Sequence record: ON528722
Length of the DNA stretch: 39,308 bases
Reading direction: 5' to 3' (one strand)
Source: Shigella phage ESh9
Each line of letters starts with the position of its first letter. The stretch's first letter is position 1. The notes beneath the pieces are model-generated. The model was not told the origin of the DNA and made no database searches. It saw only the letters and a list, made by a program, of their open reading frames with translations. Below are positions 786 to 39,308 of this stretch, piece by piece. Made by a program: the position numbers and the translations under genes.

Positions 786-808
786 TCTCCCTTTAGTGAG
801 GGTTTATT
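786..808 (-). promoter_or_regulatory. T3-type phage RNAP promoter upstream of gene 17 (one-mismatch variant)
   Basis: Reverse complement reads AATAAACCCTCACTAAAGGGAGA; overlaps the gene 16 stop. Confidence 0.7.
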
Positions 809-3800
809 GGCGAGGGCGTGTTGCATCATCCTTAATCTTGATGCCCTGCTCTTCGAAGATGTGCATAATCAACTGTTGTGTCAGCGGGTCATTGGGGACA
901 AGCTCACGCATGGAGTTGAACACACCAGTACGGAACTCTACCTCACTCTGCTTACCATCAGAGCTAAGTAGCGTAGAGGCATTCATGGCGGTAGACCCAA
1001 TGTTCCCAACTAGTCCTACAGCTGGTACTTGGTTGGATATCGCCCCTACTATGTTACCCGCAACCTCCTTACCAGTCCAAGCCTTGTTGCGGTCACGTTC
1101 GGTCTTTTCCTTTGGTAACACCGTTGAGCGGGTGTACTGGTAGGTATCATTACCGAACAAGCCACCAATCATATCATAGACAGACAGTGGGGAACCAAGG
1201 TGTGAACTTCTGGATAATGACGCGTGGGCAATCATTTTAGGGTCAAGAGCATTCTTGAGGTACTCCTTACGCTTGTGCTCCTGTAGGCCGTAAGCCTTCA
1301 AGTGCGCCTGAGCAACATAGTAACCACCAGCCAGACCCATAGAGATGATTGCAGTCAGCGCAGAATCGATAGCCCTGTTGTTCTTAGTTGCGTCATAGAA
1401 CAACCTAACGAAGCGCGAGTTAAGAGACTTGATTACGAAGTTCTTAAACTGCATCACCATCTTGACAGCCGCTCCGTAAGCCTTGGTGTCCTGTGAGGAA
1501 ACCTTATGCGGCCTAAGGATAGTCTCATCAGCAACCTTATCAGCCAGACGCCATAAGTCCATAGTCCGTGGGTCATTAGCAAAAGCCTGTTTGTCCCGGA
1601 TTGTAAACTTACCATCAGCATCACGAGTAGCGTGGTCACGGAACAACTGCTTTATTCCCTTCCACTGCTCAGGTGACACAGAGGCAGACTTAAGGTAATT
1701 CGCTTTACCGAACTTAGAGCCTTTCCCAGCGAGCGCTGCCCCAGCCACATCACCCAGTACACCCTGTCTGGCAGCATCGATGATGTAGTTAGAGGTTCCA
1801 TTAAGCAGCATCGTCCAAGGTGAACGCGCAGACAATTCCTGAGTGCCGAAGCGAATAGTCCCAACCACATTAGCCACCACTGCGTTAGTGTCAGTAGACT
1901 CCCGAAGGCGACGTATATGGTCTTCACGCCCCGGACGGATAAGCTGGTCTAGTTCCTTCCCGAACACCATACCATGAATCTCCTTAATCTCAGAGCCACT
2001 CAATGGCCTACTCCTGCTTACCCAATCGTTAAGCAGTGGGATTCCATGAAGTACCGCAGAGGTGTTTCCTTTACTCAACATAGCAGCAACCTCTGTGAAG
2101 TTCTGGAACGGCATGTAGAAGTTCTTAGCGAAGAAAGCCAAGTCAGTCATGGAGCGAAGAATCGTACCGAAAGCTCCCTCTGGGTTCATGCGGGCACGAC
2201 CAGTCAGAATCTTCACGGTGTCCTTGAGTGCTTCGACTTCACCTTTCAGTGAGCCGTTACCCTCAGACTGCTTGTCCAGCGCCATGATTTCATCTTTCAG
2301 TTCCTTCGTCGTCTTACCCGAACCACCCATGATAGCCACGTCACCATCAACTCGACGGTCATAAGCAGGAAGAATGTCAGCCATATCGTAGGTACGCAGG
2401 TCGTTCACAGAGAACGTGCTACCATCCGGGAGAGTCACAGCCATGTCGCTGTCGAACATGTTACGGGCCTCCAAGAAGTTATTGTTCTCGATGCCAACCA
2501 GACCCTCAAGGTTTTCATCAATGATAGAGGATGCAGTGAATTGGTCAGTGTGCGATATACCGTAGGCTTTATCCATGGCGTACTTCTCAGCCATCTGACG
2601 CAGCATCGCCTCTTCGTCTACCTTAGGTTCCACCTTCTCACCAGTGCCAAACTTCTGACGCTCTGAGGGCTTCGCTGGGGCAGAGTCATAGGCTTTACGG
2701 AATGCACGACCATCTGGTGTGCGAACACCACCAACAGTCTCATCCGTACCGCGATACACGTAGTCAGGACTCTCGGTCTCCGCAATGCGATACATCTCGG
2801 TTGCGATACCCTTACGGCGGTACTTCTCGGACACTTCCAGGCTCGGGTTCTGCCACACATCGCCGTCACGTTTAGCGAACTCTACGCTACCCACATGCTC
2901 ACCTTTCTTAGTGAACACGTCGACTGCGAACTCAGCGCCTTCAGCCGTCTTCGCGGTATAGTACACAAAGTCACCATCCACCTTGTACGGAGTCTCGCCT
3001 GAGTAGTCACGCTTACCTGCGAAGTAGTCACCCTGTAGCTCACCATTGGTGACCTTTGTGACACTAGCGGAGTTACCGCCAGTGACTAGGGAGTCAGGCA
3101 TGGCAGGAGTCGCCTCAGAGCCACGCAGGAAGTTCTCAGCGTCCGCAGCAGCTTGTGCTCCTTTGGTTGCCTTCTCGAACTCGTCAGCGTGAAGCTCTCG
3201 GAGGTACTCATCGACTCTCGCCTTGACTTCTGGACGAGCGCGGTAAGATGTAAGCCACGACTCTGCAATTGCCCGTTGTAGTCCCTCGTTACCGTAGCGA
3301 CTCACCATGTACAACTTTATAGCTCGGTCATATACATTAGGCACGTAGGTTCCGTTATGGCGTGAGCCGGGGAATATGCTACGAGCTTTGACGTTCCCGA
3401 AGATAGCAGGGTTTTCCATGAGTTCGCGCTTGAGGTCGAAGTGTTGTTTCAGGATATCCATCACCTTACGTTCTCCCTTTGTGAGTCCTGATTGTAGCTC
3501 TGGTCTCTCAATCGCTAAGGCAGCACGCTTATAGATTTCCTGTCGTACTTCCTTACGGCTCATCTTCACACCACCTGTAGAGAACTCAGGGTCTTTCATT
3601 GCAGTACGCACAGCATCATAAAGCTGATTGTAGGTGCGCTGATTGTTCGCGTGGAGCCGCTCCTTAATGTCAGAAGCAGTAGCACCGAACTTACCGGAAG
3701 TCCCTGACTCCATGCCAGTTGGAGAACGCACAAGGTCACTCGCAATGGAGCGAACAGTCGGGTTCTCAGAGCGGAGAGTCTTCAAGCCAATCTCAGTGAA

Positions 3801-5333
3801 ACCACCCAAAGAGATACCACGAGCGGCACGCTCAGGGTTGACCTCCTCGAACTCGCTAAGAGTCTGAGGGTTCAGCGGGTTGGTGTCGCTAAGGATTTGA
3901 CCTTGAGGCAACACAACGGCACCCGGCTCAGTTTCAAGTGGAGAATAGTTCACCCCGGCATGTTCCCCATCAAAGGAGCGACCATCTGTTGGCATACGTG
4001 TTAAGTCCTCGCCACCAGCTTGAAAGGCAGACTCACGCGCCTCCAGTCGAGTAGCAATGCGGTCGAAGTCGTTACTAACTTGACCAGCGCGAACACGGCC
4101 CAAGGCTGCACTCACACCATCAGCTATTGCGCTCATCCCGGCCCCGAACATAAGACCACCAAGGATTGCATCTTGATAGTGCGCCTCACCACCAGCAACG
4201 GATGTACGAACAGCTTCTGAAACTGCGCTCAAGGCTGCACTTTGGGCACCAACAACGAACGCCTTGTTTACCACCTTGAGACCCTTTCCAGCAACACCAA
4301 CAAGCGGCACATAGCTCAATGGGTCCACACCAGCCCCAACGATTCCACCAACCAACTTCGCTCCCACGCCAGCACCTTGAGTCTTCGCAGCCATAGCCGC
4401 ATTCTCATTAGCCAGTTTAATCAGGTCATCCAAATTCTCTGGGTCTCCTCCAGTAACAACGTTGATGTAGTTTGGGTCTTTTACCTCGTTACGGATACGC
4501 TCTAATTGCTCAGTCGTCCATGTAGTGCTGTTCCATCGAGTTGGGGTAATAGCGTCCTTGAAGATGTCAAAACTATCATCAAAACGCGCAGCATTGAAGG
4601 CAACACCCAATAGCGAGTTATGAAGCTCGGCACTTGTGGTGTCCTTTATCCCGAAGAATGTTGAACGGTTTTCATATTCCTCAACGGTAGTTCCATGTTT
4701 ATCGTAGAAATCCTTAGTGAACGGTACGGCAGGGGCCTGTTGTTCCACACCCTCCAGCTTAAAGCCAGTTGATTGTGGAAGCTCAGTTCCTACCTTCCCG
4801 GCCTTACCGATTCCAGCAAAGGCGTCCTCAGCGGGAATCCCTTTAGCCTTTGGGGTTATCCCACCGAACGCCTCCAAGTCTCCCTTGCGCGGGCTGTTAG
4901 CCACATCGAGAAGTTTACGCATGTAGTTGCGACCCTCCTCGCTGATAGAGGCCCAATCGCCTCGGTCATAAGCCTGCATTTGTGGAGCGCCATTGCGTCC
5001 CTCTCCTTGGTTGTACGCTAGGGCCGCTTTGAGTTCATCCCCGTCGTATTTCCTAACGAGGTCGCTCAGGTGGCGAGCGGCTGCGTCCACAGCCAACTCA
5101 GGGTTGAATCTCTCATCGTCATCTCCCCCTGTAACCTTGAGTCCAAGCCCCGATGCCGTACCTTTAGTGAACTGCATTAGACCTAATGGCCCGGTAGGGC
5201 TTTTGGCTTTCGGATTGAAGCCAGACTCGTTGAACGCCAATTTACGAAGCAGGCCATAGGAGACCCCATGTTCATCTGCCGCTTTCTGAAATAACCCATC
5301 ATACTCAGATGGTTTCGTCTTGTCGTAGCTCAT
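804..5333 (-). CDS. 16: Internal virion (core/ejection) protein gp16 with N-terminal lytic transglycosylase domain; 1509 aa, carries an internal insertion of about 195 aa
   Basis: N-terminus MSYDKTKPSEYDGLFQKAADEHGVSYGLLRKLA...GPLGLMQFT is the T7 gp16 SLT domain; recalled T7 gp16 similarity along the whole length except aa 716-912. Confidence 0.9.
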   Translation of the reverse strand: MSYDKTKPSEYDGLFQKAADEHGVSYGLLRKLAFNESGFNPKAKSPTGPLGLMQFTKGTASGLGLKVTGGDDDERFNPELAVDAAARHLSDLVRKYDGDELKAALAYNQGEGRNGAPQMQAYDRGDWASISEEGRNYMRKLLDVANSPRKGDLEAFGGITPKAKGIPAEDAFAGIGKAGKVGTELPQSTGFKLEGVEQQAPAVPFTKDFYDKHGTTVEEYENRSTFFGIKDTTSAELHNSLLGVAFNAARFDDSFDIFKDAITPTRWNSTTWTTEQLERIRNEVKDPNYINVVTGGDPENLDDLIKLANENAAMAAKTQGAGVGAKLVGGIVGAGVDPLSYVPLVGVAGKGLKVVNKAFVVGAQSAALSAVSEAVRTSVAGGEAHYQDAILGGLMFGAGMSAIADGVSAALGRVRAGQVSNDFDRIATRLEARESAFQAGGEDLTRMPTDGRSFDGEHAGVNYSPLETEPGAVVLPQGQILSDTNPLNPQTLSEFEEVNPERAARGISLGGFTEIGLKTLRSENPTVRSIASDLVRSPTGMESGTSGKFGATASDIKERLHANNQRTYNQLYDAVRTAMKDPEFSTGGVKMSRKEVRQEIYKRAALAIERPELQSGLTKGERKVMDILKQHFDLKRELMENPAIFGNVKARSIFPGSRHNGTYVPNVYDRAIKLYMVSRYGNEGLQRAIAESWLTSYRARPEVKARVDEYLRELHADEFEKATKGAQAAADAENFLRGSEATPAMPDSLVTGGNSASVTKVTNGELQGDYFAGKRDYSGETPYKVDGDFVYYTAKTAEGAEFAVDVFTKKGEHVGSVEFAKRDGDVWQNPSLEVSEKYRRKGIATEMYRIAETESPDYVYRGTDETVGGVRTPDGRAFRKAYDSAPAKPSERQKFGTGEKVEPKVDEEAMLRQMAEKYAMDKAYGISHTDQFTASSIIDENLEGLVGIENNNFLEARNMFDSDMAVTLPDGSTFSVNDLRTYDMADILPAYDRRVDGDVAIMGGSGKTTKELKDEIMALDKQSEGNGSLKGEVEALKDTVKILTGRARMNPEGAFGTILRSMTDLAFFAKNFYMPFQNFTEVAAMLSKGNTSAVLHGIPLLNDWVSRSRPLSGSEIKEIHGMVFGKELDQLIRPGREDHIRRLRESTDTNAVVANVVGTIRFGTQELSARSPWTMLLNGTSNYIIDAARQGVLGDVAGAALAGKGSKFGKANYLKSASVSPEQWKGIKQLFRDHATRDADGKFTIRDKQAFANDPRTMDLWRLADKVADETILRPHKVSSQDTKAYGAAVKMVMQFKNFVIKSLNSRFVRLFYDATKNNRAIDSALTAIISMGLAGGYYVAQAHLKAYGLQEHKRKEYLKNALDPKMIAHASLSRSSHLGSPLSVYDMIGGLFGNDTYQYTRSTVLPKEKTERDRNKAWTGKEVAGNIVGAISNQVPAVGLVGNIGSTAMNASTLLSSDGKQSEVEFRTGVFNSMRELVPNDPLTQQLIMHIFEEQGIKIKDDATRPRQ

Positions 5334-17857: not shown

Positions 17858-18063
17858 ACGCAACCTCCCATTCGTTTCAGGAAGCGCACACCAGAGGCTG
17901 TGACCTCCCATGCTCCACCATTGCGACCGCCCACAGTCAAACAGCTAATGTGTCCACGAGAAGCGGCCTCAGCTACGAGAGCCGCATTGTTTCGCACATA
18001 GTTCGACTGAAAGGACTTAGGGCAGCCTTTGATAGCTGCCAGCACTTTCAGGTATTCACTCAT
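17854..18063 (-). CDS. 5.7: gp5.7
   Basis: 69 aa, same length and position as T7 gp5.7. Confidence 0.7.
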   Translation of the reverse strand: MSEYLKVLAAIKGCPKSFQSNYVRNNAALVAEAASRGHISCLTVGGRNGGAWEVTASGVRFLKRMGGCV

Positions 18064-18362
18064 TAGAACACCTCCCGAACAGTAGCGGGAGACAGCTTGA
18101 AGCTGTCCTTATCGGCATACTCTTCGTGCATATCTTTGATGGCCTCACGGAAAGACGTTCGCACAAGGAAGGCCATCAGCCCCTCCATGCCATACGTCAG
18201 GAACTGGACAATCATCTCTTTCTGTTTACCATCGGGGACAATAGCGCCCGAGCCAGCCTGCTTACACAGGTGCAGAATGTCTTTCTCCAAGATTTCCTGA
18301 ACGTCAGATGCCATCTTAGCGGTAACGTCGAATGACACTTTAAATTTCTTGGTCATAGCCAT
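18063..18362 (-). CDS. 5.5: gp5.5 (H-NS-binding protein family)
   Basis: 99 aa, same length and position as T7 gp5.5. Confidence 0.75.
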   Translation of the reverse strand: MAMTKKFKVSFDVTAKMASDVQEILEKDILHLCKQAGSGAIVPDGKQKEMIVQFLTYGMEGLMAFLVRTSFREAIKDMHEEYADKDSFKLSPATVREVF

Positions 18363-18381
18363 AATAATTTCTCCTATAGAA

Positions 18382-20496
18382 TTAGTGGCAGACAGCCCAA
18401 TTCGGCCCCATCTTACCCTCGGTATCTAAACGACAACGGAAAGCCCAATGCTCTCCGACCCAACGCATAGCTTCCTGAGCGGTGTCAATAACAATCTGAG
18501 CGATGTGCTCTGTACGGCAGGCCACCTGAATCTCATCGTGAACCCAAGCCATGTACGCAAAGTCACCATCCCAGCCATGCTTCAAGCCTTTCTCAATGAG
18601 CATCTCTTCGGTCTTGATAATCCACAGCTTACAAATCAGAGCACCAGCAGACTGCAACAATGTGTTGAGCGCTGCGTGTGGAGACCTGACGTGAACCTTG
18701 CGACCATCCAGACCCTTAATCCAACGGCGTTTCCACTGGACTTTCTGCTCACCGCCAATCCAAGCGGAAGACTTAACGAGAGACTGTTGGATAGCTTCTC
18801 GTAGCGCTGCAATCGCCGGGGTGTTCTCTAAGAATTTCTTCTTGAGTTCCTTCCCGCGCTCCTTCCCTGCCCCAACAATCTGACCAATCTTCTCATCTCC
18901 GGCTCCGTAAAGGAACCCGTAAATGAAGGTCTTGGCGTTGTCTCGCGTTGGGAGTTCCGCAGCGTTCTGGTTCTTGGTGTGAATGTCACCGTTGAGAATC
19001 TCATTCGCATACTCTCCGTTGTCGAAGCGAGCCATAAAGTGTGCCAGACAGCGCAACTCTAAGCCGCTGGCGTCTATCCCCGCTTGCACCCACGGCTTGC
19101 CAGTAATCCCATCCAAATGATGTTCAGCACCAAAAGCGCTACGACACTGCTCCCCGTAAGGAGAACGAACGCCGGGTACTTGTGCAAGGTTTGGGAAACT
19201 ATGAGTAGCACGACCAGTAACTGCACCGTTAGGGTTAACGGCTCCATGAATCTTACCATCATCTTGAACATAACGTAACCACGCTTTGTCACCTTCTGCC
19301 GCCTGACCGATACGCTTCTGAATCATCAGGTACTCTTTAATCAAGTCAATGCACGCCTGCTTCTCAGGGTCATCTACTCGTACATGCTCCAAGACCTCAT
19401 CGTCCACCACAGGCGCACCCTTCTCGGTGAACTTCTCAGGAACCCATCCGGCCTCCTGTAGTTTCTTCTGAATGTGGTCACGGCTACTTGGCTTGAACGT
19501 AACGAACTCTACCGGAGTATACGGAGCACCCTCCATGTAGTCCCTCGTGTCCAAGTCGCAAGGTTCAAGACCTTCGCGCTGTGCCTTATTACGAGGCTTC
19601 TTGTACACGCCACCCTGTTTCGGATAGACCACGCGAGGATAACTCGGCAGCGGCTTGCCTGTCCGTGGGTGCTTGAAGAGTTCCTTACCACCTTTCGGTT
19701 GATACCACGAGCCAAACGTTTCGGTTAACTTTCGAAGAAGTTCGGCGCGTTTCGCTGCCAGTTCTACATAAAGTTCCTCAATTGCCTTGGTGTTGAACGG
19801 GAAGCCGTTACGCTCCTGCTTCGCTAACAGCCACGCTGCACGATGTTCAATATCCACAGACTCGCCAGCTTCACGCCAGAATAAATCCGCATCGTACTTC
19901 GTGAAGTCCATACCCGCAGGGAAGTAGTGGAGGTCTGTAAGGAATTTCTCTAAGAGCTTGACAGTGACCACAACGTCTTGAACGTTATACGCCATCATCG
20001 GCTCGTTGAACGAAACCCACTCAGCACCATCAACATATTCTTCGCCCTGCTCTTCTAGCATGGCCTTGAAGTCGTCCTTGTATTCACCCTTCATCTCGCC
20101 CAAGCGATAACCCCATGCCTCAAGAGCGTGAGACCCGAAGCGACGACCGGGTAGTTTCCCGGAACGAAGAAGCCCCATGTCTGTGTCTTTAAGGTTCGCA
20201 TGAAGTAAACGCGAGAGTACCAATGTGTCGATACAATTCTCACGGGGTAACTTGAAGTCACGATTGAGTTGCAGCTTTGCTAGTTTCTCTAAAGCCGGAA
20301 CGTCATACTTGTGACCGTTATGGAAAACAATAAGCCCACCTCGCTTCACCTCGGCTTCCAGCGCATCCAGATACGCCCCGAAGTCGCCCGGACGATAACT
20401 ATGATACTCACCATCACGGTAGTCATAGATAACGCCACAGTGAAACTTGGTGACTTTCTCTAAGAGGTTGTTGGCCTCAATGTCACTTACGAGCAT
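18382..20496 (-). CDS. 5: DNA polymerase gp5 (family A)
   Basis: 704 aa, identical length to T7 gp5; family A polymerase motifs. Confidence 0.95.
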   Translation of the reverse strand: MLVSDIEANNLLEKVTKFHCGVIYDYRDGEYHSYRPGDFGAYLDALEAEVKRGGLIVFHNGHKYDVPALEKLAKLQLNRDFKLPRENCIDTLVLSRLLHANLKDTDMGLLRSGKLPGRRFGSHALEAWGYRLGEMKGEYKDDFKAMLEEQGEEYVDGAEWVSFNEPMMAYNVQDVVVTVKLLEKFLTDLHYFPAGMDFTKYDADLFWREAGESVDIEHRAAWLLAKQERNGFPFNTKAIEELYVELAAKRAELLRKLTETFGSWYQPKGGKELFKHPRTGKPLPSYPRVVYPKQGGVYKKPRNKAQREGLEPCDLDTRDYMEGAPYTPVEFVTFKPSSRDHIQKKLQEAGWVPEKFTEKGAPVVDDEVLEHVRVDDPEKQACIDLIKEYLMIQKRIGQAAEGDKAWLRYVQDDGKIHGAVNPNGAVTGRATHSFPNLAQVPGVRSPYGEQCRSAFGAEHHLDGITGKPWVQAGIDASGLELRCLAHFMARFDNGEYANEILNGDIHTKNQNAAELPTRDNAKTFIYGFLYGAGDEKIGQIVGAGKERGKELKKKFLENTPAIAALREAIQQSLVKSSAWIGGEQKVQWKRRWIKGLDGRKVHVRSPHAALNTLLQSAGALICKLWIIKTEEMLIEKGLKHGWDGDFAYMAWVHDEIQVACRTEHIAQIVIDTAQEAMRWVGEHWAFRCRLDTEGKMGPNWAVCH

Positions 20497-21120: not shown

Positions 21121-22888
<1,768 letters not shown>

Positions 22889-22922
22889 TCAATAGTGCGA
22901 ACAAAGGGACAACGTTATGTCA

Positions 22923-22946
22923 TCCCTTTAGTGAGTGTTAATTACT
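22923..22946 (-). promoter_or_regulatory. T3-type promoter variant upstream of gene 4
   Basis: Reverse complement GTAATTAACACTCACTAAAGGGA. Confidence 0.55.
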
Positions 22947-23049
22947 TATCGGTGTGTTCCTCAGCCTTTATCGGGTCTTTGCACTGACACTGACGTGATG
23001 GTACGCGACTCTTCAACGGCTTATCACAGCGAATACAAATCATCCTCAT
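22942..23049 (-). CDS. Small Cys-rich peptide (35 aa), possible zinc ribbon
   Basis: ATG at 23049 after SD GAGGGTG; MRMICIRCDKPLKSRVPSRQCQCKDPIKAEEHTDK. Confidence 0.4.
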   Translation of the reverse strand: MRMICIRCDKPLKSRVPSRQCQCKDPIKAEEHTDK

Positions 23050-23053
23050 GGTA

Positions 23054-23509
23054 TCACCCTCGGTCAGATGTAACCAGTTCGTTCTTCTCCCACCAGCGCT
23101 TCAAGTCGAAGGACGGGCAGGCTTTTGGTGCAACGTCATGGTGAGCACGAAGGATTGAACCCTCATACTTCGCCAGCAGCGTTACCAGCAGACTACGCAG
23201 CGCTTGCATTTGCGCAGGTGTAAAGTTGGCGTCGAACTTGCCTTTATCATCAATCCCACCCACGAGGCATACGCCTACGGAGTTGTGGTTGTAACCTTTC
23301 ACGTGGGAACCTACAGCCAGTTCATCGCGGCCTGCTTCCACAGTGCCATCACGCTTGATGATGAAGTGATATCCTACGTCTAACCAGCCCTGCTCTTTAT
23401 GCCACTGACGAATCTCACGAACGCCAATGTTCTGGCTTGGCTTGGTTGCTGAGCAATGCACAAAGATTGCCTCCGTGGTTGCTCGTGGTTTGAATTGAAC
23501 TTTAGCCAT
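23054..23509 (-). CDS. 3.5: Lysozyme / N-acetylmuramoyl-L-alanine amidase gp3.5
   Basis: 151 aa; MAKVQFKPRATTEAIFVHCSATKP... matches T7 lysozyme. Confidence 0.95.
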   Translation of the reverse strand: MAKVQFKPRATTEAIFVHCSATKPSQNIGVREIRQWHKEQGWLDVGYHFIIKRDGTVEAGRDELAVGSHVKGYNHNSVGVCLVGGIDDKGKFDANFTPAQMQALRSLLVTLLAKYEGSILRAHHDVAPKACPSFDLKRWWEKNELVTSDRG

Positions 23510-23960
23510 TTACTTTTTTCTCCTTTACACGAATTAGTTTCTCCCACGGTACGTCCCGCTTAGGCTCCTTGAGCCACTCGACGGGTATCAGTTTGTCGGC
23601 AAAGAGAATCCCTTTCTTCTCGCAGAACTCGGCGTAAGAAGTTGGAGACCCTTTGTAGATTTTGGTACGACTCGAAGAGAACACCAGACGAATGTCCAGT
23701 TCAGGATACTGCTCACGGATTAGCAAGTGCTTCTTCCGGTCATCAGATTCCCACAGTCCCTTGGTCTCGACAATGATTCCATTGGGTAAAATAAAATCTG
23801 GTCGGTACGTGTGATTACTGGCTGGTATAACATACGGAATCTTCCACATTTCATATTCAGCTTTTACCCCACGAGCCTCCAGTTGTTTGTGGACTTTATC
23901 TTCAAGTCCAGAACGGAAGGAACCTACTTTTCGGATTCCTTTTGCGCCGTAGCCTGCCAT
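23502..23960 (-). CDS. 3: Endonuclease I (Holliday junction resolvase) gp3
   Basis: MAGYGAKGIRKVGSFRSGLEDKV...PDFILPNGIIVETKGLWESDDRKKHLL matches T7 gp3. Confidence 0.95.
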   Translation of the reverse strand: MAGYGAKGIRKVGSFRSGLEDKVHKQLEARGVKAEYEMWKIPYVIPASNHTYRPDFILPNGIIVETKGLWESDDRKKHLLIREQYPELDIRLVFSSSRTKIYKGSPTSYAEFCEKKGILFADKLIPVEWLKEPKRDVPWEKLIRVKEKKVNG

Positions 23961-24394
23961 TGTTTCTTCCTCCAGTTTATAGCCTGCGGCGATACTCCAA
24001 ACTCGTTGGCTAACTCGCGGCTACTCTTGGTGGAGTTCACAATGTAGGCTACCTGTTCATCGGTCAGCTTAGTCTTGTGATTGTGTACACCTCTCGCTAC
24101 TGGTGGCGCGGATAAACGACCACGCTTCTTACAGTCCTGCATGTTGTCTGCCTGAGTCCCAACTTCTAGGTGCTCAGGGTTAACACAGCAAGGGTTATCA
24201 CACTTATGTCTAATGACAAGACCTTCGGAAATTGGCCCATTGAAGACGAAGTATGATACCCTGTGCGCATATGCTTGACGCTGGCGACCTATGGATATTA
24301 AACCATAACCCTTCCCAGCAGTGGCTCGCTGCCACTCCCAGCAACCAGAGGGAGACACCTTAGAGTAAGCCTCCAGTTTCTCCCGCAGGTTCAT
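23924..24394 (-). CDS. HNH-family endonuclease with C-terminal helix-turn-helix
   Basis: AYAHRVSYFVFNGPISEGLVIRHKCDNPCCVNPEHLEVGTQADN is a classic HNH motif; 3' end overlaps the gene 3 start by 37 nt. Confidence 0.8.
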   Translation of the reverse strand: MNLREKLEAYSKVSPSGCWEWQRATAGKGYGLISIGRQRQAYAHRVSYFVFNGPISEGLVIRHKCDNPCCVNPEHLEVGTQADNMQDCKKRGRLSAPPVARGVHNHKTKLTDEQVAYIVNSTKSSRELANEFGVSPQAINWRKKQWQATAQKESEK

Positions 24395-24397
24395 GGT

Positions 24398-25096
24398 TTA
24401 AAAATCCTCGTCCTCATCCGGGGTTTCTTCGTGCTCGTCTTCCTGCCACTCCTGCTCATCGCGGGACTGACGGGATTCACTCGCAGTGTAACCACCATCT
24501 TCGACTTCATCGGCCCACTCATCTTCACCGCCACCACCGAAGGTAGCCAGTTCGACCAGCATCACGGACTCCAGTTGCAGCTTGACGCTTGCGCCCACAG
24601 CGGTGTTCCACTTGTAAGGCACCAGAGAGTATTTCACTTTCAGCTTCGAGCCACCACCGATAATCGGAACTTCCTGAATCTTCTTACCTTTGCTATCGAC
24701 AACGACCAGATTGATGTGTTTGGTCTCTTTTGTCTTCTTATCTTGGAAAGACGCATAGCATTTGAACTTGAAGGTAGTCGTACCGTCACCGTTATCGAAG
24801 AACGGCATGTCGCCCTCGTAAGGTTTCAGCGGCTTCTTACCACGCTGTACCTGCGGCGGGTTAGTTTCGAACTCTTCCACGGCAGCAGCATAAGCCTCTT
24901 CGTGAGTCTTCACGATTTCATCGACCATCGCCTGACAGCGCGGGTCTTTATTGGAAAGAGTCAGGTCTACCTTATAGACACCACGAGGGTTGCCGAAGCC
25001 ACGCTCTTCGTTGCCATAATCCGGCTTACTCAGGTAAGCATAAGGCTCAGCAGTGCCAAGACCAGAGGTGTAGATTTTCTTCTTGAAACCAGCCAT
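24398..25096 (-). CDS. 2.5: Single-stranded DNA-binding protein gp2.5
   Basis: 232 aa, identical length to T7 gp2.5; acidic C-terminal tail ending DEDEDF. Confidence 0.95.
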   Translation of the reverse strand: MAGFKKKIYTSGLGTAEPYAYLSKPDYGNEERGFGNPRGVYKVDLTLSNKDPRCQAMVDEIVKTHEEAYAAAVEEFETNPPQVQRGKKPLKPYEGDMPFFDNGDGTTTFKFKCYASFQDKKTKETKHINLVVVDSKGKKIQEVPIIGGGSKLKVKYSLVPYKWNTAVGASVKLQLESVMLVELATFGGGGEDEWADEVEDGGYTASESRQSRDEQEWQEDEHEETPDEDEDF

Positions 25097-25128
25097 AATA
25101 TTTCTCCTTTGTGGTTAATGATTGGGTT

Positions 25129-25152
25129 GTTCCCTTTAGTGAGGGTAATTAG
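25129..25152 (-). promoter_or_regulatory. T3-type promoter (phi2.5)
   Basis: Reverse complement AATTACCCTCACTAAAGGGAAC. Confidence 0.7.
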
Positions 25153-25519: not shown

Positions 25520-26045
25520 AGCACAGCCCCTTATGTTTGTCAAAGAGTTCCTGATAGAATGCAGCTTTATTGAGGTCTTTCTCCATAGTTGCCAGTTCGG
25601 ATTTCTTGCCAGCACGCAGACGGTACTTCAAAATATTCCCTAAGCAGTACCCACGGAACGCCTCGACGGTCATTGACCGGGCGATAACCTCAATGGCTTC
25701 TACGTTGTCGAACAGCATATAGTGGTTCGGATGGGTAACGTCAGACTTCGCCGGGGCTTCCACCTTCGGGGTCTGGACACCAACGGAGCCTCCAGCTTTC
25801 GGTAGCGGTACGAGGCTGTGAGGGTACACCTCGGCAGTCCCATCACCAAACCGCGCCTGCACTCGTCCAGTGTGGGAGTGTCCTGTTACGATACCACTCA
25901 TCCCTTTCAGTCGGCTCATTTGACCAACGTAGCGAACCGCAGAGTTAACCGGGTAGAGTTCATTCAGTTTGTTCGCACGGTCGGCACCACAATCGCAGGC
26001 ACCAAAGGAAAGCAGCGAACGGCAGTGGTCTTTATGAGTAAACAT
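25506..26045 (-). CDS. 1.7: gp1.7 (nucleotide kinase family by position)
   Basis: Start chosen at the ATG preceded by SD AAGGAGGT; size close to T7 gp1.7. Confidence 0.7.
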   Translation of the reverse strand: MFTHKDHCRSLLSFGACDCGADRANKLNELYPVNSAVRYVGQMSRLKGMSGIVTGHSHTGRVQARFGDGTAEVYPHSLVPLPKAGGSVGVQTPKVEAPAKSDVTHPNHYMLFDNVEAIEVIARSMTVEAFRGYCLGNILKYRLRAGKKSELATMEKDLNKAAFYQELFDKHKGLCYDAS

Positions 26046-26302
26046 TACAGTACCTCCTTGACCCATTTAAAGAACAGACGGATGCGAGGCCAGTAAGTGA
26101 CCACGGCTTCCAGATGCGGGCGCTCTTTGTTCATCGCCTTGATGAACTCTCCACGAGTTATCAGTAGGTGAACACGCGGCGACAATGGGACTACCGAACC
26201 AATCAGCGGCAGCTTGGCGTTTCGCTCAGAGGCCACTGCGGTAGAGCGGTCTTCACGGCGAACCGAAAAGATACCATTTGATGTGTTGAAGTGTAAACGC
26301 AT
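26045..26302 (-). CDS. 1.6: gp1.6
   Basis: 85 aa with SD AAGGAGA; position as T7 gene 1.6. Confidence 0.65.
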   Translation of the reverse strand: MRLHFNTSNGIFSVRREDRSTAVASERNAKLPLIGSVVPLSPRVHLLITRGEFIKAMNKERPHLEAVVTYWPRIRLFFKWVKEVL

Positions 26303-28070: not shown

Positions 28071-28095
28071 CTCTCCCGTTAGTGAGGGTTAATTG
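28071..28095 (-). promoter_or_regulatory. T3-type promoter (phi1.1)
   Basis: Reverse complement CAATTAACCCTCACTAACGGGAGAG. Confidence 0.65.
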
Positions 28096-28583
28096 AAGTG
28101 CTTCTCAATGCGACCCTTAACGTCTTCCTTCCTGTACTCGAAGGTCTTGCGGGTCTTATCGCTGTGCCACTGTGTCAGCACGTAGCGGTCACTTAGTTCC
28201 TGCCACTGCAAGGACACCACTTCGAGACCACAAGTCCCAAGTCCCAGCTTGAACTCGGTAGACGTCCAGCCTTTGTGCGGAACGTTAGCCACGAACTTGA
28301 TGGCCTTAATGCTTGACCGCTCGCGTAACTTCTGGTGCAACTCTCGGTTGTCTGCTTGCAGGTTCTTCACAAGTTCATCGCGTCCCTCAAGGTCTCCTTT
28401 GAGACGCTCGATTATCCTTTGGTTGTCACGGTCGCGGCTCCAGCAGTTTGCCAGTTTCTCTTCTGCCTCCTTCCGCCCACTCTCACACTCTTGGTACATC
28501 TTACGCATCAGCTTCTTGTCGTCGTAGTGTTTCCATGCGATGAAGCCCATAGCGATGATGATTAGAATCAGTGCGATAGCCAT
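28089..28583 (-). CDS. Hypothetical 164-aa early protein with N-terminal transmembrane helix and coiled-coil (gene 1.05 position)
   Basis: SD AAGAGGA; N-terminus MAIALILIIIAMGFIAW is hydrophobic; heptad-like charged segment RKEAEEKLAN...LQADNRELHQKLRE; no homolog recognised. Confidence 0.7.
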   Translation of the reverse strand: MAIALILIIIAMGFIAWKHYDDKKLMRKMYQECESGRKEAEEKLANCWSRDRDNQRIIERLKGDLEGRDELVKNLQADNRELHQKLRERSSIKAIKFVANVPHKGWTSTEFKLGLGTCGLEVVSLQWQELSDRYVLTQWHSDKTRKTFEYRKEDVKGRIEKHFN

Positions 28584-32539: not shown

Positions 32540-32737
32540 TTAGTGCGTTGCGATGTAGAAGATGCCAACTTTATTGGCCTTAAAGCGTCCGTTACGTTCA
32601 CGAACCGTAAACCGTGGGATGAATCCCCACTTAAAGTAACTCAGCGTTGCCTTGTGTATTACCAGACCTCGCTTAAAGTCTCGCATAAAGTACAGTGCGA
32701 TGCACAGATAGACCAGTGCGATAAAGAGAATCATCAT
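32540..32737 (-). CDS. Small hydrophobic early protein (65 aa)
   Basis: ORF with N-terminal hydrophobic stretch MMILFIALVYLCIALYF; early-region position. Confidence 0.5.
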   Translation of the reverse strand: MMILFIALVYLCIALYFMRDFKRGLVIHKATLSYFKWGFIPRFTVRERNGRFKANKVGIFYIATH

Positions 32738-32928
32738 GCGTGTTTCACCAGTTCGATAGCCTCGCGGCCTCGCCCTTCTGCGTCCAAGTGTTCCATGAGT
32801 TTAACCATCTTGCGATGATAGCGAGCGGCCTTGCGTGACTCAGAGTACCAGCCAGCGACCGCAAAGAGTGCGACAGTGATAAAGATAGCCATTGCTAATC
32901 CTCCTGTAATGTCAATCATAAAGGCCAC
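32734..32928 (-). CDS. Small membrane early protein (64 aa)
   Basis: Hydrophobic helix ITGGLAMAIFITVALFAVAGW; 4-nt overlap with the downstream ORF. Confidence 0.5.
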   Translation of the reverse strand: MAFMIDITGGLAMAIFITVALFAVAGWYSESRKAARYHRKMVKLMEHLDAEGRGREAIELVKHA

Positions 32929-32955
32929 CAGCGCGATGACCTTGAGTTTAACACT
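32908..32955 (-). promoter_or_regulatory. RNase III-type processing hairpin in the early region
   Basis: gtcaatcataaaggccacc...gaccttgagtttaacact. Confidence 0.5.
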
Positions 32956-33238
32956 AGTATTTCAAATCTTTAAGTGCAACCTCGAGTATTGTTTCGATGT
33001 GTGCATCGTTAACGTCGGTTAGGTGCCCTCCGATTATCGTCACCGCGTTGTTCTCAGCGATGATTCTGGTGGTCTCTTTAAAGCCCACTGCATGATAACA
33101 GTCCCACATAAATCGACGGAATGTTAGGCCTTTCTCCTTGTAAGCCCGTGCAACATCCGCAAGACCTCCCGCGTTGTGTGCGGCTCTGGATTCAATTGCT
33201 GACCGCAGAGCTACCGCTGTATCTTTACTTAAGCGCAT
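32954..33238 (-). CDS. Hypothetical early protein (94 aa)
   Basis: ORF between two RNase III-type sites in the early region; no recognisable motif. Confidence 0.55.
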   Translation of the reverse strand: MRLSKDTAVALRSAIESRAAHNAGGLADVARAYKEKGLTFRRFMWDCYHAVGFKETTRIIAENNAVTIIGGHLTDVNDAHIETILEVALKDLKY

Positions 33239-33260
33239 GGTGTACTCCCTTCATAGTCAA

Positions 33261-33312
33261 AAGTGATAATCATAAAGGCCACACATATAGTGCGACCTTG
33301 AGTCTATCACTT
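33261..33312 (-). promoter_or_regulatory. RNase III-type processing hairpin after gene 0.3
   Basis: aagtgataatcataaaggccac...gcgaccttgagtctatcactt with terminal inverted repeats. Confidence 0.55.
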
Positions 33313-33769
33313 ACTGCACTTGCCAGCGGCGTCCGAACTCGTCAATCGTAAAGCAGCCTTGAAGCGGTGCGCCTTTAGGCACTTCTTGGAAGCTACCCGG
33401 CAGACGTTCAGCCTTGTAACCGTCGATTCCTTTAGCGTACACCAGACCAGCCGTGTGAGTCTGTGATTTGTATACCAGTACGCAATCTTGCTCCCACTCA
33501 TTGCAAGCTAAGCGTGCAACATTGAGTGCCTGCGCCTTGTCCTTGCAGCGTACACGAACCGTTTTTTCCTCAGTCGGTGCGCTTGCGATTGCCTCACGAT
33601 AGCACCCGGTCAAATCGGTTGACTCAACGGAGCCATAAAGACCCGGAAAGGCACGTAAAGTGCTAACCATGTGGCGGTGGCGACTCATGTTCACCTCATC
33701 GTCGAGGTTGGAACGGAAAGCTGACACCAGTACATAGAAGACGTTAGCAGGCTCTTTAGTGAAAATCAT
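33311..33769 (-). CDS. 0.3: S-adenosyl-L-methionine hydrolase/lyase (SAMase), anti-restriction gp0.3
   Basis: 152 aa; MIFTKEPANVFYVLVSAFRSNL...GCFTIDEFGRRWQVQ recalled as T3 SAMase. Confidence 0.9.
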   Translation of the reverse strand: MIFTKEPANVFYVLVSAFRSNLDDEVNMSRHRHMVSTLRAFPGLYGSVESTDLTGCYREAIASAPTEEKTVRVRCKDKAQALNVARLACNEWEQDCVLVYKSQTHTAGLVYAKGIDGYKAERLPGSFQEVPKGAPLQGCFTIDEFGRRWQVQ

Positions 33770-33797
33770 TTGGTGTTACCTCATGTTAGTTCGTGTT

Positions 33798-33850
33798 AAG
33801 TGAATATCATAAAGGCCACGCTTTCAGTGCGACCTTGAGTTATTCGCTTA
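33798..33850 (-). promoter_or_regulatory. RNase III-type processing hairpin upstream of gene 0.3 (R0.3 analogue)
   Basis: aagtgaatatcataaaggccacg...gcgaccttgagttattcgctt. Confidence 0.55.
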
Positions 33851-33955
33851 TACATCGGTACACTCAAGAGCTATTTCCAGATTGTTAAAGAGCATGTCGG
33901 TCTGGTTTCGTTAGACCCTAGCGGCTTTCAGTGTCCCGCCTCACTGTCGTTTCAA

Positions 33956-33994
33956 TGTGGTACATCGTACCGTGCTTACTTCATGTTGTCAACC
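33956..33994 (-). promoter_or_regulatory. Host sigma70 early promoter A3
   Basis: Minus strand GGTTGACAACATGAAGTAAGCACGGTACGATGTACCAC: -35 TTGACA, 17-nt spacer, -10 TACGAT; matches recalled T7 A3. Confidence 0.8.
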
Positions 33995-34065
33995 ATTTTG
34001 TTTAACTTTATGTGCCGTGGTGCGCTTAAGTCACCTAGAAGACACCGAAGCGGTGGTTAACGTTA

Positions 34066-34104
34066 TGTGGTACATCTTACTGCGTTTACTTCATGTTGTC
34101 AATG
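34066..34104 (-). promoter_or_regulatory. Host sigma70 early promoter A2
   Basis: Minus strand TTGACAACATGAAGTAAACGCAGTAAGATGTACCAC: -35 TTGACA, -10 TAAGAT. Confidence 0.8.
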
Positions 34105-34194
34105 CCTGGTTTTCGTATGACTTATCAGGCTGTCTACTTATCCGGTTGACTCCGGTATCTCAGGGAGTGGCTTTAGGCCGTTGTCCCGTTGACG

Positions 34195-34232
34195 TGATGA
34201 ATAATAGCCTTAAAGGTAACTTAAAGTCAACC
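34195..34232 (-). promoter_or_regulatory. Host sigma70 early promoter A1
   Basis: Minus strand TTGACTTTAAGTTACCTTTAAGGCTATTAT: -35 TTGACT, 17-nt spacer, -10 like. Confidence 0.7.
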
Positions 34233-34275
34233 ATTAATTTTAATCTTTTATTAAATCCCTAATTCCCTCTTTAAG

Positions 34276-34298
34276 TATCCCTTTAGTGAGGGTAATTG
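34276..34298 (-). promoter_or_regulatory. T3-type promoter at the genome left end (phiOL analogue)
   Basis: Reverse complement CAATTACCCTCACTAAAGGGATA. Confidence 0.65.
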
Positions 34299-34369
34299 AA
34301 TTGACGATAGACACCATAGACAACTACATGGCATCACTACGGGTTAATAGTGGGTCTATCGGTCTGGTT

Positions 34370-34860
34370 GTCTTTAAGATAGCGCCACTCTTTAGGTGGT
34401 GGCTTTAGGTGGTGGCTTTAGGGTTTACTTTAGGAGTCTAACAGATAGGGACACATAGGGATGTACTATCGAACTGGTACACTAGGACACTCTTTAAGGC
34501 CTCCTTAAGCCATCCGCCACTTTAGGTATTGACTTTAGGCACCACTTTAGGCTATCCTATAGGCCACTTGAGGAGAGACCCAAGGTTAACCGAAGGTTAA
34601 ACCCTAGGGGGTAGGGCTGGCTTTAGGTGGCTTTAAGAGGGCTATGGGGGGTACTTGGGGTTCTTGAACTGTGAGATACCCATTCAGATTTTTGTGGTAA
34701 ATTCTTAAAGGGTCTCTTTAGGAACCCACTTTAGGTAAGGCCACACCATAGGTGAGACCATAGGCGCATCCCGAAGGGATAGCTAGGAGACACCAGAAGA
34801 CCCTGTAAGACCATTGCGAACTACAGGGCATCTTTAGGTATAACCTTTAGGGTTGACTCT
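34370..34860. repeat. Arrays of short CTTTAGG (CCTAAAG on the coding strand) repeats in the genome-end / concatemer-junction region
   Basis: About 15 dispersed 7-mer copies, e.g. ctctttaggtggtggctttaggtggtggctttagggtttactttagg; T7-group genomes carry such repeats beside the terminal repeat. Confidence 0.75.
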
Positions 34861-34933
34861 ACAGGGATGAGTAGGTGTAGTGAAACTATACCTACGAATC
34901 CCTCAGAGCCGCTTGTCGGTCATCAACAATAAT

Positions 34934-35083
34934 TTAATCCCCACAAGAGAGTATAGAGCAAAAGGCCACTTCCAGTTGACCGAGGTGGTCAGTAAGACCT
35001 GCGTACCCAAGGGTAGCAGTAAGTACCAGAAGAAATCGCCAAGTGACTCTATGACGCAGTAGGGCAATCAGCAAGCGCAACAT
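34934..35083 (-). CDS. 19.5: gp19.5 (49 aa)
   Basis: SD AAAGGAGGTG then ATG at 35083; MLRLLIALLRHRVTWRFLLVLTATLGYAGLTDHLGQLEVAFCSILSCGD matches recalled T7 gp19.5. Confidence 0.75.
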   Translation of the reverse strand: MLRLLIALLRHRVTWRFLLVLTATLGYAGLTDHLGQLEVAFCSILSCGD

Positions 35084-35223
35084 TGAGCCACCTCCTTTCA
35101 GTTGCTCTAAGGTAGGGTGATTATACAATGATAATATCACCAATCATAGAGGAGACTTAAAGTGCATAAAGGGTCATTGCATAACCTGAATGACTAACCT
35201 ATATAGTAGCTTTAAGTCCCCTC

Positions 35224-35247
35224 TCTCCCTTTAGTGAGGGTTAATTC
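35224..35247 (-). promoter_or_regulatory. T3-type promoter near the genome right end (phiOR analogue)
   Basis: Exact reverse complement of AATTAACCCTCACTAAAGGGAGA. Confidence 0.8.
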
Positions 35248-35326
35248 AAACTCATTGATTCTTAAGGAATTTCTTAAAGTGACCATCCGTGGTCTAATTG
35301 AATCCTTATGCGCTCAATATGCATAA

Positions 35327-37090: not shown

Positions 37091-37517
37091 TCTGCATCTC
37101 CTTAATAGTACGCTGGAGCGCTCTTACGTGAGCATCAGCAGCTTGGGTTATTCCGATAATACGCTTAGCATCTGACTCGTGTAGTTCGGCTCGACCATTA
37201 AACTCGCATCTACCGTTATCTTCTGGTAGTCCGGTAAGGGTCTTGATGCGGACTGACAGCCGCTTATTATTACTACGCAGGTCATTAAGCATCCTATCAG
37301 TGCTGCCTTCAATGGCTGCAATCTCTTCTTGGTACTCACGGGATACCCGACTGACCTCTGCCTGAGTTGCTGCGGTTGCTTTTGTTTTCGCAATGTATTC
37401 ATTTTGGATTACCTCCTTCCAGTTTGCTCTCTCATGGGTTGACCCTAAGTGCCAGCCACCCATAAAGAGTGTCCCGGCGAGTACCCAAGGGAGTGCGCTG
37501 CGTAAAAGTTTTAGCAT
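37065..37517 (-). CDS. 18.5: Rz-like i-spanin gp18.5
   Basis: N-terminal [16 protein letters not shown] then coiled-coil; ATG at 37517 with SD GGAGGT; track ORF begins at an upstream TTG. Confidence 0.8.
37148..37402 (-). CDS. 18.7: Rz1-like o-spanin gp18.7, embedded in gene 18.5 in another frame
   Basis: Lipoprotein signal with lipobox ...VVIISGC; ...[19 protein letters not shown] matches T7 gp18.7. Confidence 0.8.
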   Translation of the reverse strand: MNTLRKQKQPQQLRQRSVGYPVSTKKRLQPLKAALIGCLMTCVVIISGCQSASRPLPDYQKITVDASLMVEPNYTSQMLSVLSE

Positions 37518-37565
37518 AACACCTCCCATCAATTTCTAGATTTCACGTAGATGCACCAAATAACA

Positions 37566-37612
37566 TCCATAAAGGCTCCCACGTGGAGAACCTTGAGTAT
37601 GTCACTTACTGT
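37566..37612 (-). promoter_or_regulatory. RNase III-type processing hairpin (R18.5 analogue)
   Basis: catccataaaggctccc...ccttgagtatgtcactt. Confidence 0.5.
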
Positions 37613-37872: not shown

Positions 37873-37875
37873 AGG

Positions 37876-38079: not shown

Positions 38080-38090
38080 TTAACACCTCC

Positions 38091-39308
38091 TTAGTCTGTC
38101 GTAAGTTTAGATTCAAGCTCCTGAACGCGAGCGTCTAGGTTCTTAACAAGCAGCATTAATCCGCCAATTATCTGGTTAGGGTCTGGAGACTGCATACCAT
38201 CGCTCATTATATCAACCGCCTCTGGCCAGATTCGAATCAAATCCTGTGTTATAAAACCAGCACGGGAGCGCTTACCAGTGATAGTAATGTCGCGTCCACG
38301 GTTATCCTTATATGCTGAATCCTTATACTTATAAGACACTGGTATGTATGCCCGAATGATGTTCAACATGTCGTCAGCAGAGCGAACAACCTTAATGTCT
38401 TCTTTCAGCCTTCTGTCTGACTGGAACCAGCGGAACCCAACGGATGTACCATCAACGTTACCCTCAATGTAGTCCGCGCCACGGCCTGTGTACAGGCGAA
38501 CCCCAGCAGGAGGTTTGGCGAATCTGTAGTTGTCGTTGAGCATTCCCCAAAGGTTGCCACCAACGTTGTTCCATACGCCACCGCTAAGGTTCCCATCTGG
38601 GTTTAGTATCGCGTTGCCCATTCCTGCGTAGAGGTTCTGACCAACGATATTGTTGTTCCCCTCAATGCGGGCACCGGAATGAACCTGTAGGTGGTTTGCG
38701 TGGAGCGCAGCGCCTCCGGTAATAACCACTCTACCAATCTCTACCGTGTTCTCAGCATTAACTGTGCGGAACACGAATCCGCCAGAACCAGCACCACGGT
38801 TGGTGATAAAGTTTGACTCACCGCTACCACCACTTTCGTTCCATCCAATATGTAGACCCTGCCGTTGTCCAACATGTTGTGGATTGTTGTCAATGTGGAG
38901 TCGGGACAGCTTATTATAAACGTTTGGTGATAGTGTTTGATTAATGCCTCCCTGAGCATATGTGACCCCAGCCACGGTGATGTTTCGCTGAGAGTACATA
39001 TCCCGCTTTGCGGTAATATCCCTTTCAACAATCAAGTCCTCTCCAACAAGCGCACCTTTCTGGATACTCGCCGCACCTGTGGAGACTAAACCACCGCCTG
39101 TGACGTTCTGGGTAGTCACGAGTGCCCCTTTGAACCACACGTTTACGCCTTCAACCTTGTCGATTGTACCAGCAAACTCATTCATGTTTCCCAGCTTACT
39201 AGCCTCAGTGATTGCTCTCTCCTCGGAGGCCTTAGCGTTGGTCTCTGATACCTTAGCGGCAGCAGCCGAGTTAGCAACGCTCCCTTCTGAGGCCTTAGCA
39301 TTGGTCTC
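38091..39308 (-). CDS. 17: Tail fiber gp17, C-terminal part: coiled-coil shaft, glycine-rich distal domain and C-terminal intramolecular-chaperone-like module
   Basis: Open frame runs off the window end; ...NMNEFAGTIDKVEGVNVWFKG aligns to T7 gp17 ...AGAIDKVDGTNVYWKG; the distal part differs from T7 and ends with an SDRRLKEDI module. Confidence 0.85.
   Translation of the reverse strand, partial: ETNAKASEGSVANSAAAAKVSETNAKASEERAITEASKLGNMNEFAGTIDKVEGVNVWFKGALVTTQNVTGGGLVSTGAASIQKGALVGEDLIVERDITAKRDMYSQRNITVAGVTYAQGGINQTLSPNVYNKLSRLHIDNNPQHVGQRQGLHIGWNESGGSGESNFITNRGAGSGGFVFRTVNAENTVEIGRVVITGGAALHANHLQVHSGARIEGNNNIVGQNLYAGMGNAILNPDGNLSGGVWNNVGGNLWGMLNDNYRFAKPPAGVRLYTGRGADYIEGNVDGTSVGFRWFQSDRRLKEDIKVVRSADDMLNIIRAYIPVSYKYKDSAYKDNRGRDITITGKRSRAGFITQDLIRIWPEAVDIMSDGMQSPDPNQIIGGLMLLVKNLDARVQELESKLTTD

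Follow-up and report, generated by a model that had tools for sequence, protein, structure and literature searches.

A predicted free-standing HNH endonuclease gene between genes 2.5 and 3 of the T3-like Shigella phage ESh9 and its association with a divergent endonuclease I allele

The free-standing endonuclease genes of phage T4 are intergenic and patchily distributed, and are accompanied by a divergent neighbouring gene with which they are co-inherited. For the GIY-YIG enzymes SegF and SegG, there are demonstrations of both cleavage and marker exclusion, and the process has been described as intronless homing or localized marker exclusion. The gene we describe here from Shigella phage ESh9 resembles those for SegF, SegG and MobE in being an intergenic nuclease gene that is patchy in close relatives and co-inherited with a divergent neighbour of essential function (gene 3 in this case), but it is a predicted HNH rather than a GIY-YIG gene. 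Also pertinent are two enzymes from introns, I-HmuI (PDB 1U3E), the HNH nicking endonuclease of the Bacillus phage SPO1, and I-PpoI (PDB 1A73), a His-Cys box enzyme from a nuclear rDNA intron, the structures of which are the source of role assignments for the general base, the catalytic-metal ligand and the structural zinc.

Amongst the T7-like phages, T7 gene 2.8 (product NP_041971, 139 amino acids) lies between genes 2.5 and 3 (genes 2.5, 2.8 and 3 are annotated at 9158–9856, 9857–10276 and 10257–10706, respectively) and is non-essential, as deletion mutants have been built (bioRxiv 10.1101/2025.09.07.674715). In Citrobacter phage SH1, ORF17 is a homing endonuclease gene which is absent from SH2 and phiYeO3-12, and this phage lacks the gene 5.3 endonuclease (PMC4925675). 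The product of phage CR44b has been called 46% identical to SH1 ORF17 (PMC4925675) and is 97% identical to that of Hafnia phage Ca, in which the homing endonuclease gene is found in front of the large terminase gene and from which it was removed by a 397-bp deletion that arose in culture (PMC8861465). Our literature search for the ESh9 protein and T7 gp2.8 found no cleavage site, activity or inheritance bias, and the 2025 GAPS4 preprint was the only experimental work with gene 2.8 that we found. The ESh9 gene is already known at the level of annotation, with one copy described in print, and is ordinary for T7-like phages; as a routine accessory element of the T7/T3-like phages it carries little weight as a discovery.

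The locus in the ESh9 genome

The window analysed here is the whole 39,308-nucleotide stretch of sequence record ON528722, and represents an entire T3-like (Teetrevirus) genome of 39.3 kb, circularly permuted and with its genes on the minus strand. It is collinear with T3 on alignment, and over 25 kb it shares 94–96% identity with many teetreviruses of Klebsiella, Shigella, Enterobacter, Serratia and Salmonella. The right-end T3 alignment (window 34447–38098 / T3 34550–38208) overlaps the left-end alignment (window 33264–34676 / T3 1–1406) at 34447–34676, as would fit a terminal repeat that had been collapsed when a circularly permuted genome was assembled. The ends of the window fall within the tail-fibre gene region, and the ORF at 38091..39185 has a Peptidase_S74 chaperone-of-endosialidase domain.

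The features of the locus are as follows:

25131..25150, minus strand: T3-type phage promoter phi2.5, found by consensus search at the position of the annotated phi2.5 of phiYeO3-12 and T3
24398..25096, minus strand: gene 2.5 (SSB), the upstream (left) flank of the HNH gene (Pfam SBB_T7, E 5.4e-88)
24405..24409, minus strand: GAGGA, a Shine-Dalgarno-like sequence within the final codons of gene 2.5 that lies 10 nt upstream of the HNH start codon (an RBS is annotated at the equivalent position in Poynor)
23924..24394, minus strand: HNH endonuclease ORF of 156 amino acids, from the ORF list (Pfam HNH_3; PHROG 1872/59), a homologue of T7 gene 2.8 by position and sequence
23968..23973, minus strand: GGAGGA, the Shine-Dalgarno sequence for gene 3, inside the HNH 3' coding end and 7 nt before the gene 3 ATG (an RBS is annotated equivalently in Poynor)
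23924..23960, minus strand: HNH/gene 3 overlap of 37 nt, in which the last 12 HNH codons are the gene 3 5' end read in another frame
23502..23960, minus strand: gene 3 (endonuclease I), downstream of the HNH gene, divergent allele 'B' (Pfam Phage_endo_I, E 1.3e-80)

A sequence-only reading of this DNA had placed an HNH ORF between the SSB and endonuclease I genes and had its 3' end overlap the gene 3 start by 37 nt; the coordinates and the Pfam assignments of both flanking genes agree with this, and the overlap is exact. The ORF begins with an ATG separated from the gene 2.5 stop codon (TAA) by 3 nt and ends with a TAG at 23924–23926. Its ...QKESEK (stop) tail is also found in an unrelated Leclercia-type HNH allele, because this is the same gene 3 5' end. 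A group I intron was not found, as the ORF lies between two complete genes and no interrupted host gene is present.

Our search of the window with the T3-type promoter consensus gave 15 matches where none would be expected by chance. The HNH gene has phi2.5 as its sole upstream phage promoter, the next one being found at 22923–22942; with no match to the consensus within 22943–25130, and so none inside the cassette, the HNH gene is therefore co-transcribed with genes 2.5, 3 and 3.5. A scan of the region for sigma-70 promoters found none, and the terminator-like matches in the region are mostly on the non-coding strand.

When aligned with the empty junction of phiYeO3-12 (...GAGGACTTCTAATG), the cassette spans about 435 nt, beginning just past the TAA of gene 2.5 and reaching as far as the gene 3 ATG, with the gene 2.5 stop codon forming its left edge. 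In T3 and phiYeO3-12, the stop codon of gene 2.5 shares bases with the start codon of gene 3 in the sequence TAATG, and there are no remnants of an insert. The position of the GAGGA sequence suggests that it would serve gene 3 in phages with an empty slot and the HNH gene here. RNA folding around the HNH and gene 3 starts revealed no structure beyond that of shuffled controls (z of 0.21 and 1.00, respectively), and therefore provides no evidence for translational sequestration of the kind reported for some T4 homing genes.

A search of the window with an HMM of the HNH family found no second copy. The gene 5.3 HNH of T3 and phiYeO3-12 is absent, as it is in SH1, and gene 5.5 (18063..18362) comes directly after the DNA polymerase gene 5 (18382..20496), with only 18363–18381 between them. 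We note that the window and T3 have a single HNH gene each, in different slots, and that the same pattern has been reported for SH1 and SH2.

The predicted HNH protein

The ORF matches Pfam HNH_3 (PF13392) at 50.2 bits (E 1.9e-13; the curated cut-off is 24.8 bits) over the full 46-position profile, and the PHROG endonuclease families (1872/59) with a best E of 8.5e-35; the assignment to the HNH family is far beyond chance. No family was returned by an NCBIfam search, and a single-sequence search of PDB sequences gave no match, so that a profile was required. The following features are predicted for the protein:

24143..24208, minus strand: catalytic and zinc motif HKCDNPCCVNPEHLEVGTQADN, amino acids 63–84, from the translation and residue alignment
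24125..24394, minus strand: N-terminal nuclease domain, amino acids 1–90, with a beta-beta-alpha-metal (His-Me finger) fold
23927..24073, minus strand: C-terminal three-helix HTH DNA-binding domain, amino acids 108–156

The motif had been described as a textbook HNH motif, and while the letters quoted are exact at residues 63–84 and the HNH_3 match bears out the family, the alignments indicate an H-N-N / His-Cys-box-like variant of the His-Me finger and not the colicin-type H-N-H. Residues H63, C65, C70, H75, N84 and C18 are invariant in 60 homologues, in which N72 is at least 90% conserved, and the catalytic and zinc residues are also intact in the alleles of other phages, T7 gp2.8 included. 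We looked for a loss of the catalytic His and Asn on alignment and did not see it (these are H63 and N84 in the invariant set). Profile alignment to I-PpoI pairs H63 with H98, C65 with C100, C70 with C105, H75 with H110 and N84 with N119, residue by residue, and the family profile matches the I-HmuI sequence across both domains (E 0.0034), with the motif aligning with the I-HmuI catalytic segment VVDHKDGN...TQKIN. By analogy with these enzymes, H63 is predicted to be the general base, N84 a metal ligand, and C65, C70 and H75 together with C18 the zinc ligands.

The AlphaFold model, which was built with 60 homologues, has a mean pLDDT of 86.7. The N-terminal domain (amino acids 1–90) is beta-rich with a pLDDT of >90 over most of its length and has the beta-beta-alpha-metal fold, the linker between the nuclease and HTH domains (amino acids 91–110) is of low confidence and poorly ordered, and the C-terminal domain consists of three helices (amino acids 112–155), so that the helix-turn-helix-like tail noticed in the sequence-only reading is real. 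The best structural match of the model is I-HmuI, and the protein has the same modular layout of an N-terminal HNH domain, an extended linker and a C-terminal HTH. It should be noted that the two share only about 20% sequence identity, and that I-HmuI is encoded within an intron and lacks a Cys/His zinc site whereas the ESh9 gene is free-standing and its product has I-PpoI-like predicted zinc ligands. In comparison with I-PpoI, the ESh9 protein comes from a bacterial virus, adds an HTH domain, and has no evident second zinc site; its match to the I-PpoI family in Pfam (zf-His_Me_endon, PF05551) is under the curated cut-off (24.2 bits, with a cut-off of 27), and positions C65, C70 and H75 align exactly with the I-PpoI ligands.

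The pN/pS of the HNH gene is 0.12–0.14 when compared with the Poynor and ESh8 copies, a value based on only about 15 substitutions, and the gene is under purifying selection. We considered whether the ORF might have no function and be a reading frame that is decaying or arose by chance, for which the Shine-Dalgarno spacing of 10 nt, longer than optimal, could be cited but nothing else specific. This is extremely improbable and we regard it as refuted by the family match (Pfam E 1.9e-13), the intact catalytic and zinc residues, the pN/pS of 0.13, the confident model, and the conservation of the full-length gene in eight phages and in many metagenomic contigs. The ORF is instead an intact, free-standing HNH (His-Me finger) endonuclease gene.

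Occupancy of the slot and linkage to gene 3

Proteins 97–98% identical to that of the window are found in eight GenBank phages (Klebsiella phages Poynor, KpnP_VR4605 and KLB4, Shigella phages ESh7 and ESh8, Serratia phage 2050H2, Citrobacter phage SH1 and Pantoea phage F5M1C), where they are annotated as 'HNH endonuclease' or 'homing endonuclease'. The DNA of the locus is 96.7–97.7% identical in these phages (ORF17 in SH1), which have the gene in the same slot and with the linked gene 3 allele; there are few substitutions across the eight, and the translation of the Poynor gene has four amino-acid differences from that of the window. Kayfunavirus pO91 has a 70%-identical copy in the same slot.

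Comparison with T3 and T7 found the gene to be absent from the 2.5/3 slot of T3, as it is from that of phiYeO3-12, and T7 gene 2.8 to be in the same slot with 43.2% identity over residues 3–139 (tblastn, E 7e-23 to 1e-22). T7 gp2.8 is like the window protein in lying between genes 2.5 and 3 with a 3' end overlapping gene 3, and in sharing its invariant C/H/N residues and HTH tail, but it is 17 residues shorter and without part of the linker, the overlap of its gene with gene 3 is 20 nt and not 37 nt, and it belongs to a Teseptimavirus and not a Teetrevirus.

The slot is found in four states amongst relatives that are 94–96% identical over 25 kb. The window allele is present in ESh8, VR4605 and KLB4, a 46%-identical protein (the Leclercia 10164-302 / KP13MC5-2 allele) in KP13MC5-2, and a 50%-identical protein (the LL2 / HMGUsm2 allele) in HMGUsm2 and CT02, and the slot is empty in E-4, RPN15, NL_ZS_3 and Keithstache. 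This is the sporadic presence and absence at one locus among close relatives that is looked for in homing genes. The expectation that the family would sit in different slots in different phages was also borne out, with members found at the 7.7 position and next to the exonuclease gene, in addition to the position before the large terminase gene in Hafnia phage Ca.

The HNH gene is accompanied by an unusual gene 3. Gene 2.5 is 96–99% identical in all relatives compared and the window gp2.5 is 98% T3-like, but the window gp3 is 80% identical to T7 gp3 and only 70% identical to T3 gp3. Identity to the empty-slot phages E-4 and Keithstache falls from 96–99% in gene 2.5 to 61–75% across all of gene 3 (gene 3 as a whole has only 69% nucleotide identity to empty-slot relatives, compared with 97% for gene 2.5) and recovers to about 100% right where gene 3 gives way to gene 3.5, while identity to ESh8 and KP13MC5-2 is 97–100% through gene 3. 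Given this sharp drop between a T3-like gp2.5 and a divergent gp3, the unit that differs is therefore the HNH gene plus gene 3.

We searched the phage collection with artificial 'empty' junctions in which the end of gene 2.5 was fused to each gene 3 allele. An insert was present in the slot in each of the 20 records that have the window-type gene 3 and in each of the seven that have the LL2-type allele, and the inserts in these HNH-linked gene 3 records (27/27, representing non-independent lineages) were of 416–438 nt. The contiguous, empty junctions among the matches listed (40 and 18 records, largely from the same phages) all had a T3/phiYeO3-12-type gene 3, and an empty slot was not seen next to an HNH-linked gene 3 allele in any of the matches listed. 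Two HNH alleles which are only 46% identical precede the same gene 3 allele (96–99% identical), and cassette replacement must therefore have occurred precisely at this site. We regard the strict linkage between HNH and gene 3 alleles as only a mildly new point, and one which provides a concrete target hypothesis.

Ordinary mosaicism could give the same picture of a sharp-edged block in which a divergent gene 3 is linked to the HNH gene in 27 of 27 records, and ordinary modular recombination could yield this linkage without cleavage. Mosaic blocks with edges just as sharp but without nuclease genes are found within 2 kb on either side of the HNH cassette. One, at 25700–26100 in the gene 1.7 region, is 45–78% identical to all five close relatives examined, and another lies at 22700–22900, in the 5' part of gene 4. 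Here the window shares 100% identity with E-4 and Keithstache, which have an empty slot, but only 61–78% with ESh8, KP13MC5-2 and HMGUsm2. Recombination therefore takes place often, and irrespective of the HNH gene. At 23502–23530, gene 3 of the window ends with ...KEKKVNG (stop) and overlaps gene 3.5, whereas in ESh8 and KP13MC5-2 it ends with ...KEKK (stop) and abuts gene 3.5. A different right-hand recombination end-point from that of ESh8 and KP13MC5-2 was ruled out here, as a one-base difference in an A-run alters the last gene 3 codons.

These observations bear on the possibility that the HNH gene is a resident, vertically inherited accessory gene which was ancestral to the Studiervirinae and lost in the T3/phiYeO3-12 lineage, with its patchiness and linkage to gene 3 produced by ordinary modular recombination and without self-promoted mobility. 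The nuclease may then be inactive on phage DNA or serve general DNA metabolism. Such a history would agree with the presence of homologues in the same slot in three genera (those of T7, pO91 and the window phage), with the nearby mosaic blocks that have no nuclease gene, and with the clean TAATG of the empty junctions. We nonetheless think it unlikely, as three HNH alleles that are 46–50% identical swap precisely between flanks that are 96–99% identical, and two of them share one gene 3 allele, which indicates repeated cassette-level turnover at this exact site. Furthermore, members of this family occupy several intergenic positions besides this one, as is typical of mobile endonuclease genes, and the combination of HNH-linked gene 3 and empty slot is missing among the matches listed.

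Proposed function and other features of the genome

The patchy occupancy of the slot among ~95%-identical relatives and the co-inheritance of a divergent gene 3 fit a homing element, and on balance we favour a functional site-specific endonuclease for which intronless homing with the linked gene 3 is the most likely role. The protein would be an I-HmuI / I-PpoI-like His-Me finger enzyme, with a zinc-stabilised nuclease domain, a flexible linker, and a C-terminal HTH that reads the target. It would be expressed as a class II gene transcribed from phi2.5 together with genes 2.5, 3 and 3.5, and translated from the Shine-Dalgarno sequence that gene 3 uses where the insert is missing, with the cassette bringing a replacement for gene 3. 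During a mixed infection with an empty-slot relative, the rival genome would be nicked or cut at or near the 2.5/3 junction or in the T3-type gene 3 (the enzyme might only nick, like I-HmuI), and recombinational repair from the HNH-carrying genome would then bring in the HNH gene along with the gene 3 allele to which it is linked and which is presumably resistant to cleavage, a process that would amount to intronless homing or localized marker exclusion. The target site could not be located from the sequence by itself because the gene 3 alleles differ throughout (at about 30% of positions).

An extension of the homing model, which we offer tentatively, is that the HNH gene and gene 3 form a two-gene selfish cassette that drives the replacement of a rival Holliday-junction resolvase gene, with each of the three HNH lineages keeping such a pairing. 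The target would then be a gene 3 of the T3/phiYeO3-12 type or the point at which that gene meets gene 2.5, and the cassette's own gene 3 would be resistant to cleavage; the protein might also protect from DNA-break-sensing defences. The suggestion in the sequence-only reading that the protein may cleave host or competitor DNA is speculation.

The experimental work with T7 raises the alternative that the protein is kept mainly as an anti-defence aid and not for homing, through DNA binding that is independent of catalysis and that blunts a DNA-break-sensing nuclease such as GAPS4, a mechanism which has been proposed for HNH homing endonucleases of other phages. Catalytically dead bas24_0090 and T7 gp3.8 H34A attenuate GAPS4, T7 without genes 2.8, 7.7 and 3.8 makes smaller plaques, and this triple mutant loses to the wild type only under active GAPS4 (bioRxiv 10.1101/2025.09.07.674715). 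The purifying selection on the ESh9 ORF is also compatible with a benefit to the phage. For gene 2.8, however, these data come from the T7 triple deletion and not from gp2.8 singly, and many successful close relatives do without the gene. A pure DNA-binding role would also not require the invariance of the catalytic and zinc residues that is seen in the 60 homologues. We consider it quite improbable that this is the main reason for which the gene is kept, and note that an anti-defence role is compatible with homing as the two are not mutually exclusive. As far as homing itself is concerned, wild-type T7 did not outgrow the mutant without genes 2.8, 3.8 and 7.7 unless the host carried GAPS4, but this competition, the one published for T7, was run at an MOI of 0.001 and with scarred deletion sites, and is not a fair test of homing (bioRxiv 10.1101/2025.09.07.674715).

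Near-isogenic phages with an empty slot or one of three HNH alleles, in which the resolvase allele is strictly linked to the state of the slot, make a clean natural test system of modest value. Such material could give a function to T7 gene 2.8, an uncharacterised gene of the best-studied phage, and could be used to ask whether the mosaic make-up of the replication modules in the Studiervirinae is driven by free-standing nucleases. It is also relevant to phage engineering and therapy cocktails, as genes of this kind can bias the outcome of co-infection.

Elsewhere in the window, gene 16 (internal virion protein D, ejectosome; 804..5333, minus strand) encodes a protein of 1509 amino acids compared with 1318 in T3. 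A segment of about 560 nt, in frame and at about 2600–3320, is missing from phiCFP-1, 2050H2 and RPN15, the closest teetreviruses, where the flanks are 97% identical, and is present at about 80% nucleotide identity in the Klebsiella phages VAC71, FOPMU1 and P7246, the E. coli phage pO103 and the Yersinia phage WX2. The segment matches the GNAT model Acetyltransf_1 at 23.8 bits (cut-off 20.7) and five weaker GNAT families, and may be an acetyltransferase domain in an ejected virion protein.

About 540 nt between genes 0.3 and 0.6 (32722–33264) have no T3 counterpart. The ORF at 32954..33238 (minus strand, 94 amino acids) has no Pfam match but belongs to PHROG 9817, of unknown function (E 6.6e-40), and is an early-region accessory gene. 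The gene 1.05 product (28089..28583, minus strand) is 164 amino acids long compared with 90 in T3; its match to the Pfam T3 gene 1.05 family is confined to the 70 residues at the C-terminus, while its whole length matches PHROG 6440, also of unknown function, and the 164-amino acid form is annotated in KP13MC5-2 and Keithstache as well.
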